Source: Acidobacteriota bacterium (lineage in GTDB: Bacteria > Acidobacteriota > UBA6911 > JACQSX01). Taken from it: a DNA stretch of 11,831 nt. The DNA lies in NCBI GenBank assembly GCA_036507075.1, contig DASXQR010000096.1, positions 1 to 11,831 of the forward strand, read 5' to 3'. Under the pieces are notes generated by a model. That model was not told the DNA's origin and did not search any database. It was given only the letters and a program-made list of their open reading frames with translations. A program made the translations under genes and the position numbers. This document shows positions 3,065-10,563 of this stretch, in pieces (the first letter of the stretch is position 1; each line of letters opens with the position of its first letter).

Positions 3065-4069
3065 CTACGCCAGCTTTCGAGCAATCATGAGACCATGTTC
3101 ATCAGCGAGTACGAAGTTCGCACGCTCAATGTCCACAAATCCTGCGTCACTGAGCCAATCTCTGTGTTCTTGCTCCGTGTAGGACCCGCCATTATCAAAG
3201 CGATTTATGAAAACCAGATTGAATCCCACTGCCTCCAGAGGGGCGGTACGGGAGTTATCGAGAATCTGCGCGACGATGTATATCGTCCCACCTGGATTTA
3301 TTGCAGCACCTATGTTCTTTACCGCCAGGCGCGCATGTTCTGGGGACAGAACCTGGAGCAGAGCCCTCAATACCACGGCGTCATATGAACCTGATAAAGG
3401 ACCTCTCGCCACATCCGCCGCCATGACTTTGACACGGTCCGTCGCTCCTTCCTCTTCCACGATCCTTTGAGCAATCGGAGTAACCAGAGGAAGGTCAATC
3501 GCAGTCGCCTGCATGTGGGGGCAGGCCTTCGCCATTGTTAACGCAAGCCCCGCACCTCCACAACCAACATCCGCCAGGGTCTTAGTCGTTGAGAAGTCAT
3601 ACCTCTCTAACAGGGCATGCGCAGCTGCGACTGTGAGGACGTTGATTCGACGAAGGAATGCCTCTAATTCCGCTTGTGGAGAATTGGAGAAGTCGAGTTG
3701 AGCCTGTGGCACCCCAGTGCGAATGGATTCGGCAGTTTTGAGGTTGATCATCCACCGGTTGTACAAGAGTGTGTGCTTGTTGCCCATGTATGAGGAAGCC
3801 CCCTTCACCAGGAACCGATTGGCTTCGGGGGTGTTTGAGAAACGTCCGTCCTTCTCGGTCAACAGCCCTGCGGCAACTAAGCCATATAGAAGAAGTCGCA
3901 ATCGTGCAGGGCCTACATCAATCGCATGGGCAATCTCATCGGCGGTCATGGAACCGCCCTGCAACGGTGTGAATACGTCAAGCTGCACGCCCGCCAGCAT
4001 GGCAAAAGCTGCGTCGGTTCCAAATATGAGATTGTTCACGAGATCAGGTCGAGGAACTGGGCCTTCCAT
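3065..4069 (-). CDS. SAM-dependent O-methyltransferase (dimerisation domain plus Methyltransf_2 type)
   Basis: GGAGG RBS, N-terminal winged dimerisation domain (LDVFTPL..TADEIA), SAM motif 'LADVGCGGAG', then 'IDLP' and 'GSYDAVVL'. Confidence 0.92.
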   Translation of the reverse strand: MEGPVPRPDLVNNLIFGTDAAFAMLAGVQLDVFTPLQGGSMTADEIAHAIDVGPARLRLLLYGLVAAGLLTEKDGRFSNTPEANRFLVKGASSYMGNKHTLLYNRWMINLKTAESIRTGVPQAQLDFSNSPQAELEAFLRRINVLTVAAAHALLERYDFSTTKTLADVGCGGAGLALTMAKACPHMQATAIDLPLVTPIAQRIVEEEGATDRVKVMAADVARGPLSGSYDAVVLRALLQVLSPEHARLAVKNIGAAINPGGTIYIVAQILDNSRTAPLEAVGFNLVFINRFDNGGSYTEQEHRDWLSDAGFVDIERANFVLADEHGLMIARKLA

Positions 4070-4170: not shown

Positions 4171-4243
4171 CTTCCACGTTTCCGGAATTCCGGAAACGTG
4201 AGTAATGTCACGTTTGCTCAATTGCGCAAATCCGCAAATGAAG
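4171..4243. repeat. Palindromic element R1, copy A
   Basis: Perfect 26-bp palindrome at 4175-4200, and a second site CACGTTTGCTCAATTGCGCAAATCCG at 4209-4234. Confidence 0.97.
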
Positions 4244-4320
4244 GGGATTTGTGGCCGGGCTTTCTGACAGCTGACTGGCGCTTGACAGCTTCTATGTGGT
4301 AGTCGCTTTGCCCACCTGCC

Positions 4321-4686
4321 TTACTCTTCCACCTGTGTGGTCGTGCTCCCTTTTGCTGTTAAAGCAATGTGGGAGAATGAGGAATCAGGCGTGGCCCCAT
4401 GCCAATGTTTCTCTTCCGCCTGAATGTGCACGACATCCCCCACGCTGATGACTTCCCGGTGCGTTTCCGTGGCGATGATACCCTTCCCGGCAGTGACAAA
4501 CAGCACCTGATCGCTGCTATGGGTGTGCATTTTGTTCCGGGCGCCGGCGCTGAAGTTGACGACGCCCAGATTAAAGTAGTTGCTTGTCTCAGGCGTTAGC
4601 AGCGGCTGCCGCGTCACGGGACCGCCGGTAAACAAGGGACTATTCGCGGATTCTGCGGGAATCCGGTCGGGCTTGAGCACCTTCAT
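4321..4686 (-). CDS. Small cupin-domain protein (cupin_2 type)
   Basis: AGGAGG RBS; cupin motifs 'MHTHSSDQVLFVTAGKG' and 'GDVVHI...EKHWHGA'. Confidence 0.92.
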   Translation of the reverse strand: MKVLKPDRIPAESANSPLFTGGPVTRQPLLTPETSNYFNLGVVNFSAGARNKMHTHSSDQVLFVTAGKGIIATETHREVISVGDVVHIQAEEKHWHGATPDSSFSHIALTAKGSTTTQVEE

Positions 4687-4810
4687 TAGAGCATCCTCCT
4701 TTCAGTCTCTAGTTCTTCTCCTGTATGGTAGATTCCATCATCCTTACTTGGATATGAATGGCCGGGGTCAGACCCTACAATCTTAACCTGCGAATGGGAG
4801 GATTTCTCGC

Positions 4811-5044
4811 CGAAGCCGGCAAAAATCTTGACGTCCTCCCGTCATCCAATCTATGAGTATTTAGTACCGCAGAATCGGTTCGATTGAAACTCGCAGATGG
4901 AGGTGACCGGGTATGGCCTTGGTACGGTGCGTTACGGAAATGGGTATGGGAGTGGATGTTCACGGACTGGATTACACCAGTGCCGCCAAACGGGCGGTGT
5001 TCGATGCGATTCATCACAGCAGCTTGGGATTTCCGCGGCTGGTG
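4811..5044 (+). repeat. Source copy of the duplication at 1073-1307
   Basis: Near-identical direct repeat. It includes a TTGACG box (4828-4833), the RBS and the first 44 codons. Confidence 0.95.
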
Positions 5045-5257
5045 GGCAAGACCGCCGACGATATGCGGGTGGATGTGACCATTGGCGTGCCCAAGCCCGA
5101 AGCGGTGGATCGCCAGGCCGTGCTGGAAACGTTGCCGCACGGCGGAGGGCACATCAACGTGGTCCACGGCGGATTGCAGGTGCTCAATGAAAAGGGCGAC
5201 GATGGTTGGCTGATTGCTAACGCCATCATCGTCGTCAGCATGGACGACGGCAAATAG
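4913..5257 (+). CDS. Lin0512-family protein (function unknown)
   Basis: Signature 'EMGMGVDVHGLDYTSAAKRAVFDAIHHSSL' and 'VDVTIGVPKPEAVD..AVLETLPHG...VVHGGL'; GGAGGTG RBS. Confidence 0.9.
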   Translation: MALVRCVTEMGMGVDVHGLDYTSAAKRAVFDAIHHSSLGFPRLVGKTADDMRVDVTIGVPKPEAVDRQAVLETLPHGGGHINVVHGGLQVLNEKGDDGWLIANAIIVVSMDDGK

Positions 5258-5266
5258 ACGAAGCCA

Positions 5267-5295
5267 GTTCCAGACGTTTCAGACGTTCCAATCGT
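5267..5295 (+). repeat. Three 9-bp tandem units
   Basis: GTTCCAGAC GTTTCAGAC GTTCCAATC directly after the Lin0512 stop codon. Confidence 0.65.
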
Positions 5296-5472
5296 GATGG
5301 CCGGGTCAGACCACAATCGTAACACTCTTGCTATTTTTACCGAACCCGTTTCGTCTGGAATTGCGCAGCCACGAGACGGGACGCACAACTACTCCGTTCT
5401 TTCCGGGAACAACCCCGGCATCCAGCGAGACGCGAGTGCGGCTGGGAATGCAAGGCGCAGCGGCGCGCCGTA

Positions 5473-5551
5473 GAACACTTCCCACGTTTCCGGAATTCCG
5501 GAAACGTGAGATATGCCACGTTTGCTCAATTGTGCAAATCCGCAAATGAAG
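5473..5551. repeat. Palindromic element R1, copy B
   Basis: Perfect 26-bp palindrome at 5483-5508 and second site from 5517. It ends 7 bp from the bicupin stop codon. Confidence 0.97.
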
Positions 5552-5558
5552 AAAAAAT

Positions 5559-6797
5559 CTAAACCCCTCCCGGTTCCGATTCGCCTTCGGGCGGAATCCG
5601 CTGGGAGTAGACCCAAACCGGCATACGACTGGTCATCCCTTCAGCAGACACCGCAGCTTCATACGCGTGTCGAACGTGCGGATCTTCGTCGACGTAGGAG
5701 ATCGCTCTGCCGCCATCCCGCGTGTCTATGGCACCCCCGTCCGTCGCCGCGTCACCGGGTGATCCGCCGTAGCGAAAGCCCGGTCCGTAGGGTCCGTCGA
5801 AGACGAGCAACCGAAGTCCGTCAGGATGCGTGCCGAAGTGCTGGTGGAACCAGTCGCCTCTCATCGGCGCCGCGCTGATCATGCCTACCGGCTCGTAGGT
5901 TTGTTTTTTCACTTGATCGCCGGCTCCCGCGCTCCACGGTTGCATGCCGAGTCGATCGGGCCAGGTGTAGCTGTAGCCCTTACCCTTGATGCAGACGAGG
6001 ATGGCGCCGGAAGAATGTTTGTGCGCCTTGGAGTACTGGCCGGTCTTGTACTGGGCGATCTTCATGTAGAAGTTCGCGCCCGCCATGTGCGGCTCGATAC
6101 GTCTATAGTCGAACGCGCGACGGTTGTCCGGCGGCAACTCACAAGTGAGAATGTCGGGGATAATGTTCGTGCGGCGCATGGCGAGGCCGCGCACCGGATC
6201 GGCGTAAATATCCTCCACCGGCTTGAAATAATCATCCGAGGCATCGAAGCGGTTGAGGAAATTGTAAGGACAGTTCATGACGAACTCGGCGTCGCGAATC
6301 AGATTGACGATGTTGGGCGCCGTGGTTGCCGCGAGCAAGAGCGCCGGAGAAGAGGTGGCGTTGACAACTTGGTGCCACGCGTTGAGCGGAATCGCGAAGA
6401 GCGATCCACGACTCCATTCGAATGTCAGCTTTTTGCCGTTGCCTTCCTGCCAGACTTCAGTGGTGCCGCGACCTTCAACGACGTAGTAAACCTCCTCGTA
6501 GAGATGCCGCTCGGGGTTCAGCGCTCCCGCCCCGGGCACTTCGACGACATACATTCCCCACAGGCTTTCCGTCCCCAACAGTTGAATGGCGACGCCGCGT
6601 CCCCCCAGTCGCTTCCACGGCGACAGCGCCAGATCCTGCACCTTATGCACGCCGATGTCCCGGTGTATCGGAATACCCTGCGCCTCCATGAATAAATCGT
6701 AGGGCGACTTTGGATTTTTCCACTTACCGAAACCCGCCTTTTGACCCGCCTTTGGCTCGCGCCAATCGAATAACTGCGCGCCTGATTCAACACCCAT
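5559..6797 (-). CDS. Bicupin protein (two cupin domains; gentisate 1,2-dioxygenase-like fold, substrate unknown)
   Basis: GAGGAGG RBS. Domain 1 has 'ERHLYEEVYYVVEGRG...AIPLNAWHQ' and domain 2 has 'KAHKHSSGAILVCIKGKG...WFHQHF'. Confidence 0.88.
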   Translation of the reverse strand: MGVESGAQLFDWREPKAGQKAGFGKWKNPKSPYDLFMEAQGIPIHRDIGVHKVQDLALSPWKRLGGRGVAIQLLGTESLWGMYVVEVPGAGALNPERHLYEEVYYVVEGRGTTEVWQEGNGKKLTFEWSRGSLFAIPLNAWHQVVNATSSPALLLAATTAPNIVNLIRDAEFVMNCPYNFLNRFDASDDYFKPVEDIYADPVRGLAMRRTNIIPDILTCELPPDNRRAFDYRRIEPHMAGANFYMKIAQYKTGQYSKAHKHSSGAILVCIKGKGYSYTWPDRLGMQPWSAGAGDQVKKQTYEPVGMISAAPMRGDWFHQHFGTHPDGLRLLVFDGPYGPGFRYGGSPGDAATDGGAIDTRDGGRAISYVDEDPHVRHAYEAAVSAEGMTSRMPVWVYSQRIPPEGESEPGGV

Positions 6798-6892
6798 GGT
6801 ATTTACCCTCCTCGAAGAGCCGTCTTTCCCTAAAAAGGCGATCGACTTAGAGTTGAACTACTTGATTTCCTCTCCCGGCGTCAAGTAACTAA

Positions 6893-6927
6893 TAGGCATT
6901 AGGCATGAGGCATCAGGCAAGAGTCAA
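6893..6927 (+). repeat. 7-bp tandem repeat tract
   Basis: TAGGCAT TAGGCAT GAGGCAT CAGGCAA GAGTCAA. Confidence 0.75.
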
Positions 6928-7009
6928 CGGTCAGAACCCGCCGGTCGTGTGAACCGCTCAAAACGACAAGCTAGCAGCGCTGCTTCTTGCCGCTTATTTT
7001 CCTCTCCCG

Positions 7010-7089
7010 GAACACTTCCCACGTTTCCGGAATTCCAGAAACGTGAGATATGTCACGTTTGCTCAATTGCGCAAATCCGCAAACGAAGG
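7010..7089. repeat. Palindromic element R1, copy C (left flank 6921-7009 also homologous to the flank of copy D)
   Basis: Palindrome at 7020-7045 with one mismatch (7037), and second site from 7054. Confidence 0.96.
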
Positions 7090-7217
7090 AGATCTTAGCG
7101 TGACGATGCTCGCCTTTGCGATTCCCTCGAGATCGTTCTTTGAGACGAAAGGGTCCGCGAACTCCATACCCGCAGTGACACTGCGTCTTTGATTTCCGCT
7201 GATCCCCGACAAGGACT

Positions 7218-7481
7218 CTATCGTTGTTTATCGACCGCTTTCCAGAAATCGCCGTGTTTGATGCCGCGTCCCTTCTTGATGCGCCGTTCGGCGGCCTTCA
7301 GCAAGGCCATAAATCGCGGCGTGTGGGCAAGAATTAACCGTTCAAGCTCTTCTTCGCTCCCCACAGCTACCAGCACCGCTTTCGCCCGGCCGTTCTTTGT
7401 CACCACAACGGGGCTTTCCTTACACTCTTCGACATAACTGCTAAAGCGCGCCTTAACCTCCGCAAGAGGGGCAATCTTCAT
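7218..7481 (-). CDS. Type II toxin-antitoxin antitoxin, Phd/YefM family
   Basis: N-terminal 'MKIAPLAEVKARFSSYV...PVVVTKNGRAKAVLV' is the Phd/YefM DNA-binding signature; 87 aa. Confidence 0.92.
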   Translation of the reverse strand: MKIAPLAEVKARFSSYVEECKESPVVVTKNGRAKAVLVAVGSEEELERLILAHTPRFMALLKAAERRIKKGRGIKHGDFWKAVDKQR

Positions 7482-7576
7482 AATTCGAACTCCTTTCCGC
7501 CGATATACAATCGCTCTTTGATTTTGACGCCAATTGCGAGAAGATTAACCGTCCAAAGCTCGCGATCCACTTTGTA
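7478..7576 (-). pseudogene. C-terminal remnant of a RelE/ParE-type toxin
   Basis: 'YKVDRELWTVNLLAIGVKIKERLYIGGKEFEL*' resembles RelE/ParE C-termini, and its stop overlaps the antitoxin start (ATGA). The upstream sequence is unrelated repeat DNA. Confidence 0.75.
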
Positions 7577-7607
7577 GGGGAGTCCTAAGGGGATCGCATC
7601 TTTACTT

Positions 7608-7647
7608 TTGACATTCGCCGATTCGATAGCACTTGCAACTGCGATCC
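7608..7647 (+). repeat. Dispersed repeat family R2, copy 3 (short)
   Basis: GCCGATTCGATAGCACTTGCAACTGCGATCC (7617-7647) is 28/31 identical to 1347-1377. Confidence 0.75.
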
Positions 7648-7667
7648 GCTCGGAAGAGATTAGCCGC

Positions 7668-7819
7668 GAGGCAACAGTCAAAACCCGCCGGTTGTGTCAA
7701 TCGTTGAAAACGGTTTTAAACAGTTCTAGCCGCTCGAGCTGGCAGCGCTGCTTCTTCCCGTCTATTTTCCTCTCGTGGAACGCTTCTCACGTTTCCGGAA
7801 TTCCGGAAACATGAGATAT
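7668..7819. repeat. Palindromic element R1, copy D (lacks the second site) with extended left flank shared with copy C
   Basis: Palindrome at 7788-7813 with one mismatch (7811). 7668-7787 aligns with 6921-7019, with an internal indel. Confidence 0.93.
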
Positions 7820-7836
7820 ATCGCCATTACTAATCT

Positions 7837-8139
7837 CTAGCGCCGCACGGCGGAAGCGGCCTTCACAAAGCGGGAAAGCGCGCTGAGAACGCCTCTGACC
7901 TCGCCCGGATGTTTGAGCCGGTACCGATTCCGCCTGCCGTCCTGCTGGTAGCGCACCACCTCGGCCACTCGCAGCACGCCGAGCACGGTGCTCACCCGCT
8001 GCACGCTCCGGTGAACCGCGCGGGCGATTTCGCCGACGCTGAGCTCTCGGTTTTCCGCGAGCAGTTGAACAACTGAAAAGGCCAGCGGATTCCCGAGCAG
8101 CCGGCAGAGACGCGATTGCCTATAGCTGCCTTCTTCCAC
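7837..8139 (-). CDS. ArsR/SmtB-family winged helix-turn-helix transcriptional regulator
   Basis: 'CRLLGNPL...VVQLLAENRELSVGEIARAVHRSVQRVSTVLGVLRVAEVVRYQQDGRRNRYRL' follows the ArsR HTH-wing pattern; 100 aa, GTG start, weak RBS. Confidence 0.88.
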   Translation of the reverse strand: MEEGSYRQSRLCRLLGNPLAFSVVQLLAENRELSVGEIARAVHRSVQRVSTVLGVLRVAEVVRYQQDGRRNRYRLKHPGEVRGVLSALSRFVKAASAVRR

Positions 8140-8152
8140 GCCGGCTTACTTA

Positions 8153-8218
8153 TCACGTTTCCGGAATTCCGGAAACGTGAGATATGTCACGTTTGCTCAA
8201 TTGCGCAAATCCGCAAAT
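8153..8218. repeat. Palindromic element R1, copy E; candidate operator of the ArsR-like gene
   Basis: Perfect 28-bp palindrome at 8153-8180. Its 26-bp core begins 14 bp upstream of the GTG start, and the second site starts at 8188. Confidence 0.97.
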
Positions 8219-10112: not shown

Positions 10113-10161
10113 CTAACTCAAGAAGCGACGGCCAACTCCGTAGGTTGACACGCTAGCGAAG

Positions 10162-10306
10162 CAAATCCGAAATCCGAATATCGAAATCCGAAACAAACTT
10201 AAAACCGTAAAACCGAAATTCAAAATCCGAAACGGGCCGTTTAGAGGTTTCTGCTTTTTGACCATTTGAATTTGTTTCGCGTTTCGGATTTCGAGTTTCG
10301 AATTTG
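10162..10306. repeat. Long imperfect inverted repeat built of (AAATCCG)-like heptamers
   Basis: Arms 10162-10197 and 10271-10306 are 28/36 reverse-complementary. It lies between convergent genes. Confidence 0.85.
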
Positions 10307-10407
10307 TTTCTATTTTGCGTCTCGGGTTACGTTCGACTCCGCTCAGCGCGAGATACAATCCTTCTCTTCTCGTCGTCGGAAAAATTCAAATAGGTCGGTT
10401 TAGCTAG

Positions 10408-10563
10408 CAGGGCTACTGAGAAATCCCTCGGAGTCCTTCGACACGCTCAGAGCCCGTCCTGAGCTTGACGAAGGAACGAACGGAATGTGAGTATTGAAAT
10501 GATTGAACAAAATCCGTTCACGCTGAGGTTCTCGAAGCGTGAGTGCCATTTTTCAGCAGCCTG
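10408..10563. mobile_element. MITE-like non-autonomous element with internal REP-like hairpins
   Basis: Imperfect terminal inverted repeats CAGGGCTACTGAGAAAT / ATTTTTCAGCAGCCTG, flanked by CTAG and TTAG. Internal hairpin at 10434-10475 has 15/17 paired. Confidence 0.6.

Follow-up and report, generated by a model that had tools for sequence, protein, structure and literature searches.

Genes lying next to short repeated sites are found in several described systems. Clusters of attC sites without a nearby integrase (CALIN) are reported in PMC4889954. In the REPtron, outlined in PMC6006769, a gene is bracketed by its own repetitive extragenic palindromic (REP) sequences in the order REP-tnpA_REP-REP, and the repeats fall into subclasses; the SRM-ssnA-SRM element likewise consists of a gene bracketed by its own repeat (PMC11893778). 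Modules bounded by pdif sites are moved by an enzyme encoded elsewhere, according to PMC12907356. Here we describe a family of palindromic sites, together with a small ArsR-type protein that is its likely reader, on contig DASXQR010000096.1 of GenBank assembly GCA_036507075.1, which is listed as an Acidobacteriota bacterium. The window analyzed is that entire contig of 11,831 nucleotides (contig C96 of assembly G000 in our numbering), and the sites lie between positions 4,171 and 8,218. The system is real and, as far as was searched, previously undescribed: no published account of it was found, with subscription journals and supplements lying outside the search. The sites and the gene of the probable reader are as follows.

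4175..4200, no strand: site A, CCGG type, perfect 12-2-12 palindrome
4209..4234, no strand: site A', stacked second site of GCTC/GCGC type, 34 bp downstream of A
5483..5508, no strand: site B, CCGG type
5517..5542, no strand: site B', GCTC/GCAC variant, stacked
7020..7045, no strand: site C, CCGG type, one mismatch
7054..7079, no strand: site C', GCTC/GCGC type, stacked
7788..7813, no strand: site D, CCGG type, one mismatch, 23 nt past the repressor stop
7837..8139, minus strand: ArsR/SmtB-fold winged-helix protein of 100 amino acids, helix SVQRVSTVL, predicted reader of the CCGG type
8154..8179, no strand: site E, CCGG type, 14 nt ahead of the repressor start
8188..8213, no strand: site E', GCTC/GCGC type, stacked

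A first-pass annotation made from the sequence had placed five copies of a 65-bp element at 4175, 5483, 7020, 7788 and 8154 (spacings of 1308, 1537, 768 and 366 bp), and these positions were confirmed. The heart of each copy is a 26-bp palindrome of 12-2-12 form, CACGTTTCCGGA-AT-TCCGGAAACGTG, which is perfect in A, B and E and carries one mismatch in each of C and D. The supposed tail of the 65-bp element proves to be another palindrome from this family whose core differs (GCTC/GCGC), located 34 bp downstream at A, B, C and E; the two-type stack had been overlooked. No second site occurs at D, and copy D is short for that reason. The window thus holds nine sites, five of the CCGG type and four stacked second sites, and it is the second site, together with the outer arms, that gives the copies their common polarity. 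On the right side, the gaps from gene stop to the end of the stacked site measure 86, 16 and 138 nt for A, B and C, and the gap to D is 23 nt; the distances of 77, 7, 128 and 17 reported earlier agree with these values when counted from a longer element end. Site E, in contrast, does not follow a stop but lies ahead of a start. The pattern of five copies is not due to chance, since no family site is found on the other 232 contigs of the assembly, and perfect 26-bp palindromes of any sequence number only eight in the rest of its 6.1 Mb, each single and on eight other contigs.

In layout the system is like CALIN and in build it is like REPtron and SRM, and yet it fails a defining test of each, as it does of pdif. 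With integrons and CALIN it shares co-oriented units of gene plus site, a site that follows soon after the stop, toxin-antitoxin cargo, and the absence of an integrase nearby. Its sites, however, are far shorter than attC, have no R-box pair, show no covariation of the hairpin type, and are matched to a repressor-type reader. Indeed, the earlier remark that attC cores are lacking was borne out, for an RYYYAAC/GTTRRRY pair spans none of the five window sites on either strand. As in REPtron and SRM, a small gene is bracketed by its own palindromic repeat, the repeat comes in types specific to subclasses, and further copies occur across the genome. The genes of those two elements encode single-strand nucleases acting on hairpins, whereas the window gene is non-catalytic and its site resembles a double-strand operator. 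The pdif/dif modules of XerC/XerD are likewise bounded by inverted-repeat sites of ∼28 bp. Unlike dif, the present site has a self-complementary center and a variable core matched to a winged-helix protein, and the dif-type sites of two host genomes (G622 and G624) bear no likeness to it. The 12-2-12 form also suggested a site for a serine resolvase or invertase, a candidate that was set aside because no serine recombinase is linked. With regard to miniature inverted-repeat transposable elements (MITE) or insertion sequences (IS), the empty alleles found keep one site. No Rfam match was obtained.

The 100-residue protein encoded between D and E has 555 homologues and is present in 42 of the 121 genomes examined from a Binatia-type order. 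Its model has a pLDDT of 91.7, with SmtB, Rv0081, CzrA and HlyU as the top Foldseek matches. Profile searches match SmtB, NolR and CadC, the fold is like that of SmtB, CzrA and NolR, and the score against the NCBIfam metalloregulator model is 49.8 bits, below the 55-bit cut-off. In an unbiased search for the best palindrome (at least 10 of 13 paired positions), one was found upstream of 55 of 64 repressor genes and downstream of 54, as opposed to 25 of 291 other genes taken from the same site-rich loci. A site of the family lies on both sides of 47 of the 64 genes, and in 45 of these 47 the two core types match (2000 shuffles gave a mean of 8.2 and a maximum of 19). The first-pass annotation had counted this gene as ordinary cargo. 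Its matched flanking sites and the covariation between helix and core point instead to the gene between D and E as the likely reader of the CCGG sites.

The covariation links residue 51 to the outer core base, residue 48 to the next and residue 47 to the innermost, and is strongest at 51. In half-site counts that are not independent of one another, Asn or Ile at position 51 goes with T in 74 of 74, Thr, Ala, Gly, Ser or Glu with C in 91 of 92, and His with G in 43 of 48; Arg 48 accompanies C in 125 of 126 and Gln 47 accompanies G in 87 of 88. In alignment, the position of residue 51 is that of the SmtB histidine, which a 2026 preprint describes as the i+5 specificity position and as base-contacting in an SqrR-DNA structure (10.64898/2026.05.15.721447). 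When the helix is left out of tree building, 13 changes of core are counted. The covariation shows a joint diversification of protein and site, with at least eight types of specificity.

Half-site symmetry among 355 sites exceeds expectation only at positions 3-6 from the center; there is none at positions 10-22, and at position 17 it falls below expectation. This confinement points to readout of double-stranded DNA by a dimer in a polar site rather than to a hairpin, and models based on cruciform cleavage or an attC-like hairpin are ruled out by the profile. A homodimer was predicted with a score of 0.77, the best of three controls reaching 0.00, and the contacts agree by at least 86% between runs with pLDDT values of 82 or higher. 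In the calibration, 20 of 30 solved pairs and 1 of 23 single chains attained the mark used; four copies were modeled here, unlike in the calibration, and resemblance to ArsR dimers of known structure may account for the score. The predicted interface is formed by the first and last helices. The invariant residues Tyr 6, Arg 7, Ser 9 and Arg 10, once considered for catalysis, sit in that predicted interface and were dismissed as catalytic candidates. No second, tetramer-forming interface is confident in the model, which provides no evidence against looping. Note that the invariant Cys 12 touches its twin at the predicted dimer axis, where it might serve as a redox or metal switch.

The protein shares with the ArsR/SmtB autorepressors SmtB, CzrA, NolR and SqrR the fold, a palindrome near its own start, specificity at i+5 and perhaps, as the model predicts, the homodimer, and the 12-2-12 inverted repeat is the operator form of these known repressors. 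Unlike them, it has a second site past its stop and tens more per genome at the 3' ends of genes, there are several paralogous specificity types per genome, and units are gained or lost at the site. That the site is the operator of an ArsR-type protein is very probable, and it is common to all four readings weighed below.

The contig itself is probably foreign to its assembly, and mis-binning would be the simplest reading. Only two of its seven proteins of at least 120 residues have a match elsewhere in the assembly, at 27-30% identity, whereas DNA matches to it, at up to 93%, occur in 116 of the 123 genomes of the Binatia-type order. Each of three such genomes has 27-42 matches to the bicupin protein of the window, and two relatives from the family of the assembly have none. 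Among the relatives of the assembly, 60 yielded two weak DNA matches and 20 yielded no repressor protein. The window is thus flagged as not belonging to the assembly in which it was binned. The confinement of sites to this contig within the assembly therefore carries no information on dispersal, and the genome-wide count proposed earlier as a test of it is void. One relative (G001) has a GCTC-type site on a short contig (L002), which may be a similar case of a foreign contig.

For this reason dispersal was examined in the Binatia-type order. A 20-base core was found in 74 stretches of species genomes, mostly Binatia or Deltaproteobacteria; 20 genome loci without the outer arms were taken as chance and excluded from the site counts. 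The family form is CACGTTT-NNNN-AATT-NNNN-AAACGTG, with the cores CCGG, TCGG, TCGC, GCGC/GCTC, CGAG, CGGG, TGAG, CGAC and GCAC. The exact degenerate pattern occurs in 65 of the 121 genomes with 1-30 matches each, and the reversed control gave none. Sites were found in 40 of the 42 genomes having a repressor gene versus 25 of the 79 without, kin among these genomes not being independent. Only 1 of 322 sites lies inside a long gene, and only 9 of 322 are hybrids with two or more differences. Narrow patterns matched 2 of 401 genomes in a phylum sample and 6 of 151 in a class sample. In viruses and plasmids there was no match to the CCGG-like pattern and no relative of the repressor protein. Nine viral matches to the broad pattern represent a single look-alike palindrome in related temperate phages and were taken as chance; this look-alike is a long, conserved phage palindrome located between a cro-region gene and a replication gene (L256-L264). 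In five loci (L044, L045, L050, L083 and L126) a CCGG site lies just upstream of an RF-1-domain (arfB-like) gene, and the other side differs. Within the palindrome there is an internal period of 8 bp, and a site at L042:3199-3232 carries an 8-bp duplication at its center.

Between genomes, the homology of these loci repeatedly reaches a palindrome's far edge and ends there. The clearest case concerns the D-E interval. Locus L086 consists of the left flank of D, one CCGG site, a stacked site, and the right flank of E up to the amidohydrolase gene, such that, relative to the window, exactly the repressor gene and one site (366 bp) are absent. In L088, a repressor gene of the second type lies between two GCTC sites where copy A of the window has one (A'). 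Lastly, a cargo-only unit of 1364 bp with two genes lies between two CCGG sites in L109, with a single site in L056. In these three cases, as shown by comparison of the sequences, a stretch between two sites is present or absent as one or more genes plus one site. By the same comparison D-E is a proven unit of the window, and A-B, B-C and C-D are to be called intervals between sites. Two further pairs, L139 versus L110 and L013 versus L056, were rejected as cargo insertions or deletions, the flanks being too weak or the difference not bounded by sites.

On long contigs the sites form clusters of 19 in 24 kb (G621), 10 in 11 kb (G668) and 9 in 10 kb (G687), and solo sites elsewhere in host genomes are common. 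Neighboring polar sites less than 4 kb apart are co-oriented in 75 of 82 cases, and the genes of the three arrays lie largely on one strand (25 of 30, 17 of 20 and 13 of 17), a pattern also found in the window. The cargo consists largely of toxin-antitoxin and other small genes. A site lies at a median of 108 nt from the 3' end of cargo (n = 200) and 234 nt from its 5' end (n = 256). Of 33 distinct pairs of sites stacked at a distance of 28-110 bp, none consists of two sites of one type, as compared to 40 of 86 pairs at 420-5000 bp. The neighboring genes of the sites differ in every genome. Besides sites, the arrays contain IS elements and repeats of other families, and no common anchor gene is found at their ends. 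The first-pass annotation had named copies scattered genome-wide in random orientation, or a fixed gene order in relatives, as outcomes contrary to a gene-capture or recombination array. The copies number 1-39 per host genome and are clustered and co-oriented, and gene order varies between relatives. The proposed array thus gains from the exact indels of gene plus one site, the homology ending at sites and the co-oriented arrays of up to 19, but not in its form of a single local array, given the common solo sites. Within the G621 array, a non-coding repeat of 270-370 bp occurs at L198:15980-16340 and in four more copies; it carries a damaged hybrid site with a CGAG-like half, a TGAG-like half and a deleted center. 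An IS110-family transposase gene lies inside a different repeat near a stacked site at L089:7305-8324.

The first-pass annotation had proposed to look for a co-occurring tyrosine or serine recombinase or HUH transposase; no dedicated recombinase was found. Pfam and NCBIfam scans of 93, 106 and 50 proteins chosen from site neighborhoods (of 1030) revealed only scattered IS1595, IS4, IS630, IS110, Mutator and Y1 genes. No site was present in 30 tyrosine-recombinase loci, 20 HUH Y1 loci (taken from 34 Y1_Tnp matches in five genomes) or two serine-recombinase loci. The integron integrase IntI does not occur beside the arrays. It is encoded in 38 of the 121 genomes and was not found in 14 of the 31 site-rich ones, with a weak association to sites (28 of 38 genomes with IntI versus 37 of 83 without). 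Serine recombinase (PF00239) was not found in four of five site-rich genomes. Two large serine recombinase genes lie ∼5 kb beyond the G621 array (L197:2459-6247), perhaps at an island edge, with no site in those loci. Twelve longer repressor homologues show no catalytic fusion and look like mis-called starts or read-through, no protein exceeds 200 residues among the best 150 in a profile search of cluster representatives, and the bracketed gene contains no nuclease domain.

We lean, with some reserve, toward a mechanism in which operator-bounded units are exchanged by general host recombination at repressor-bound sites. There are strong indications that every repeat serves as operator for a small homodimer of ArsR type, with the 26-bp palindrome set within a polar site of ∼38 bp. 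A repressor gene positioned between two copies of its own site would regulate itself. The sites would double as points of exchange at which one or more genes plus one site leave or enter, and repeated gain at existing sites would build the stacks of unlike sites and the polar arrays rich in toxin-antitoxin genes. Since the unit encodes no catalyst, strands would most likely be exchanged by the general recombination of the host, acting over a common stretch of 30-65 bp and supplied by incoming DNA; ComEC was matched in four of five site-rich genomes. The symmetry of the site would be restored afterwards by selection or strand switching, and toxin-antitoxin cargo probably slows loss.

A number of observations weigh against this mechanism. 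All of the empty alleles could be deletions between direct repeats, and among 323 junctions, a site-centered sample, there is no site-free empty allele, such that the first arrival of a site is left unexplained. Of 72 duplication ends near arrays, 20 are no more than 40 nt away from a site, 13 of them in both copies, where 12% of intergenic positions are expected to be so placed, but most fall away from sites, often in other repeats. One and the same flank can adjoin sites of different type, and exchange is therefore not strictly type-specific. None of 30 loci with homologues of the window's bicupin and methyltransferase genes (75-83% identical) has a site within ∼1.5 kb, which leaves the portability of these metabolic genes unsupported. 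A shared length of 30-40 bp is marginal for RecA, and the fifth site-rich genome has no match to ComEC. As to the recognition code, the half-site counts are interdependent, and independent pairs number only 3, 2, 4 and 1, none being opposite to the code and none significant.

It might be argued that the arrays are a site-specific cassette system in which the winged-helix protein targets or pairs sites for an enzyme encoded elsewhere, each type forming its own exchange channel. Such a scheme would account for the polarity and shared orientation of the arrays, in which the stop of the cargo adjoins the site, for the exact units, and for the avoidance of like types in stacked pairs, although slippage between close identical repeats would remove same-type stacks as well. 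In its favor, too, the site scaffold is 93% identical where the cargo flanks are 79% (32 pairs, a difference inflated by the manner in which sites were found), and in one duplicated repressor unit, 99% identical, the ends lie 19-20 nt from the two site centers. We nevertheless consider it somewhat unlikely given the recombinase loci free of sites, the site-rich genomes in which serine recombinase or IntI was not found, the absence of catalytic fusions and the scarcity of hybrid sites. A broader formulation, an integrase-free, integron-like exchange in which tiny repressor-type proteins with their own DNA addresses mark or pair cognate sites for a host enzyme and thereby open parallel capture channels, is put forward only tentatively.

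The other two explanations deny the cargo any movement. According to one, only the repressor module is mobile, and the arrays are litter in permissive toxin-antitoxin islands, made of solo sites left behind. The repressor 5' flank does indeed pair with many partner flanks (35 sites, the partner being unique at most of them), truncated repressor starts lie beside some solo sites, and both the duplication ends away from sites and the other repeats and IS elements in the arrays suit this explanation. However, at least 162 of 356 sites, including most array sites, have no repressor remnant within 150 nt (74 assignments of short remnants, contaminated by stacked-site matches, were excluded), and a reading as decayed modules is limited accordingly. 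At A, B and C the matches of 25-31 nt coincide with the stacked site, litter would not yield a single polarity matching the cargo strand, and a cargo-only unit does lie between two sites where a relative has one; we regard this explanation as improbable. The other would make the sites an ordinary regulon, operators of the neighboring genes with no role in mobility. It agrees with the protein family and the 12-2-12 form, and a TTGAC -35 box follows the upstream site in one clade (15 of 29 cases with a long gap). At sites facing cargo starts, though, there is no -35 enrichment (14 of 256 versus 24 further out), the sites lie nearer to cargo stops than to starts, the neighbors differ in every genome, and the exact indels end at sites, all of which makes a mere regulon very improbable.

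If repressor-type proteins with their own addresses do direct such exchange, a genome would possess several channels for shuffling toxin-antitoxin and metabolic genes, each with an address set by three to four residues and reprogrammable. The arrays are cassette-like structures built on the probable operator of a repressor, and not on attC, dif or REP sites; they occur in a soil lineage that is abundant and uncultured, where they would be invisible to integron tools. Next to REPtron and SRM elements they offer a third type of repeat-bracketed gene, here a non-catalytic one, and allow one to ask whether DNA binding alone can drive the spread of a repeat. It is a new variant of the bracketed-gene and cassette-array themes, and would be categorically new should the repressor direct the exchange. 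The eight or more natural protein-site pairs, which differ by single residues, offer a putative recognition code for the ArsR family and possibly a set of orthogonal repressors.

The remaining features of the region are listed below.

3065..4069, minus strand: O-methyltransferase, left neighbor, start 105 nt from site A
4321..4686, minus strand: small cupin (Cupin_2); L088 has a 94% copy, arranged differently between CCGG sites
4913..5257, plus strand: Lin0512-family gene
5559..6797, minus strand: bicupin, of a family expanded in Binatia-type genomes, with homologues elsewhere that lack bounding sites
6912..7018, no strand: partial copy of the non-coding flank common to C and D
7218..7481, minus strand: Phd/YefM antitoxin
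7478..7600, minus strand: remnant of a toxin gene of ParE/RelE type, of which the 3' end is left and non-coding flank has taken the place of the 5' part
7616..7786, no strand: non-coding mosaic flank of ∼170 nt, also beside CCGG sites in L086, L088 and L089
8409..10112, plus strand: amidohydrolase, right neighbor, also present at the empty locus L086

The cargo named in the first-pass annotation (Cupin_2, Lin0512, bicupin, Phd antitoxin and an ArsR-like helix-turn-helix protein) stands, with the addition that the A-B interval also contains a plus-strand gene. The toxin remnant has no Pfam match, but its last 24 residues are identical to the C-terminus of a ParE-family toxin at 13 of 24 positions (E = 9e-7). 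The non-coding mosaic pieces at 1331-1411, 2864-2945, 6912-7018 and 7616-7786 mark other junctions as well. As an RNA the mosaic flank was discounted, for it is patchy and occurs in 4 of 121 genomes. A scan for promoters and terminators gave results at chance level. No RNA data set was listed among the sequencing runs that contain this sequence. In one soil run (X2, with 4 of 24 runs examined), there is zero cover at 3556-3950 and 7111-7505 between flanks of depth 20-37, with no clear joining contig, and this is not taken as evidence.

Several other repeats were observed in the window. The promoter and 5' half of the Lin0512 gene are duplicated at 94% identity over 260 bp (1048-1307 and 4784-5044), and the first copy ends abruptly beside a piece of the flank repeat. 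At 10158-10310 there are 46-bp inverted repeats of GAAATCC-like units, where the summed depth of the soil runs rises to ∼800 with many loose ends; it therefore appears to be another dispersed repeat family. Finally, an intergenic, REP-like repeat is located at 10431-10540, and presumably resembles elements of the CGTC/SRM type.

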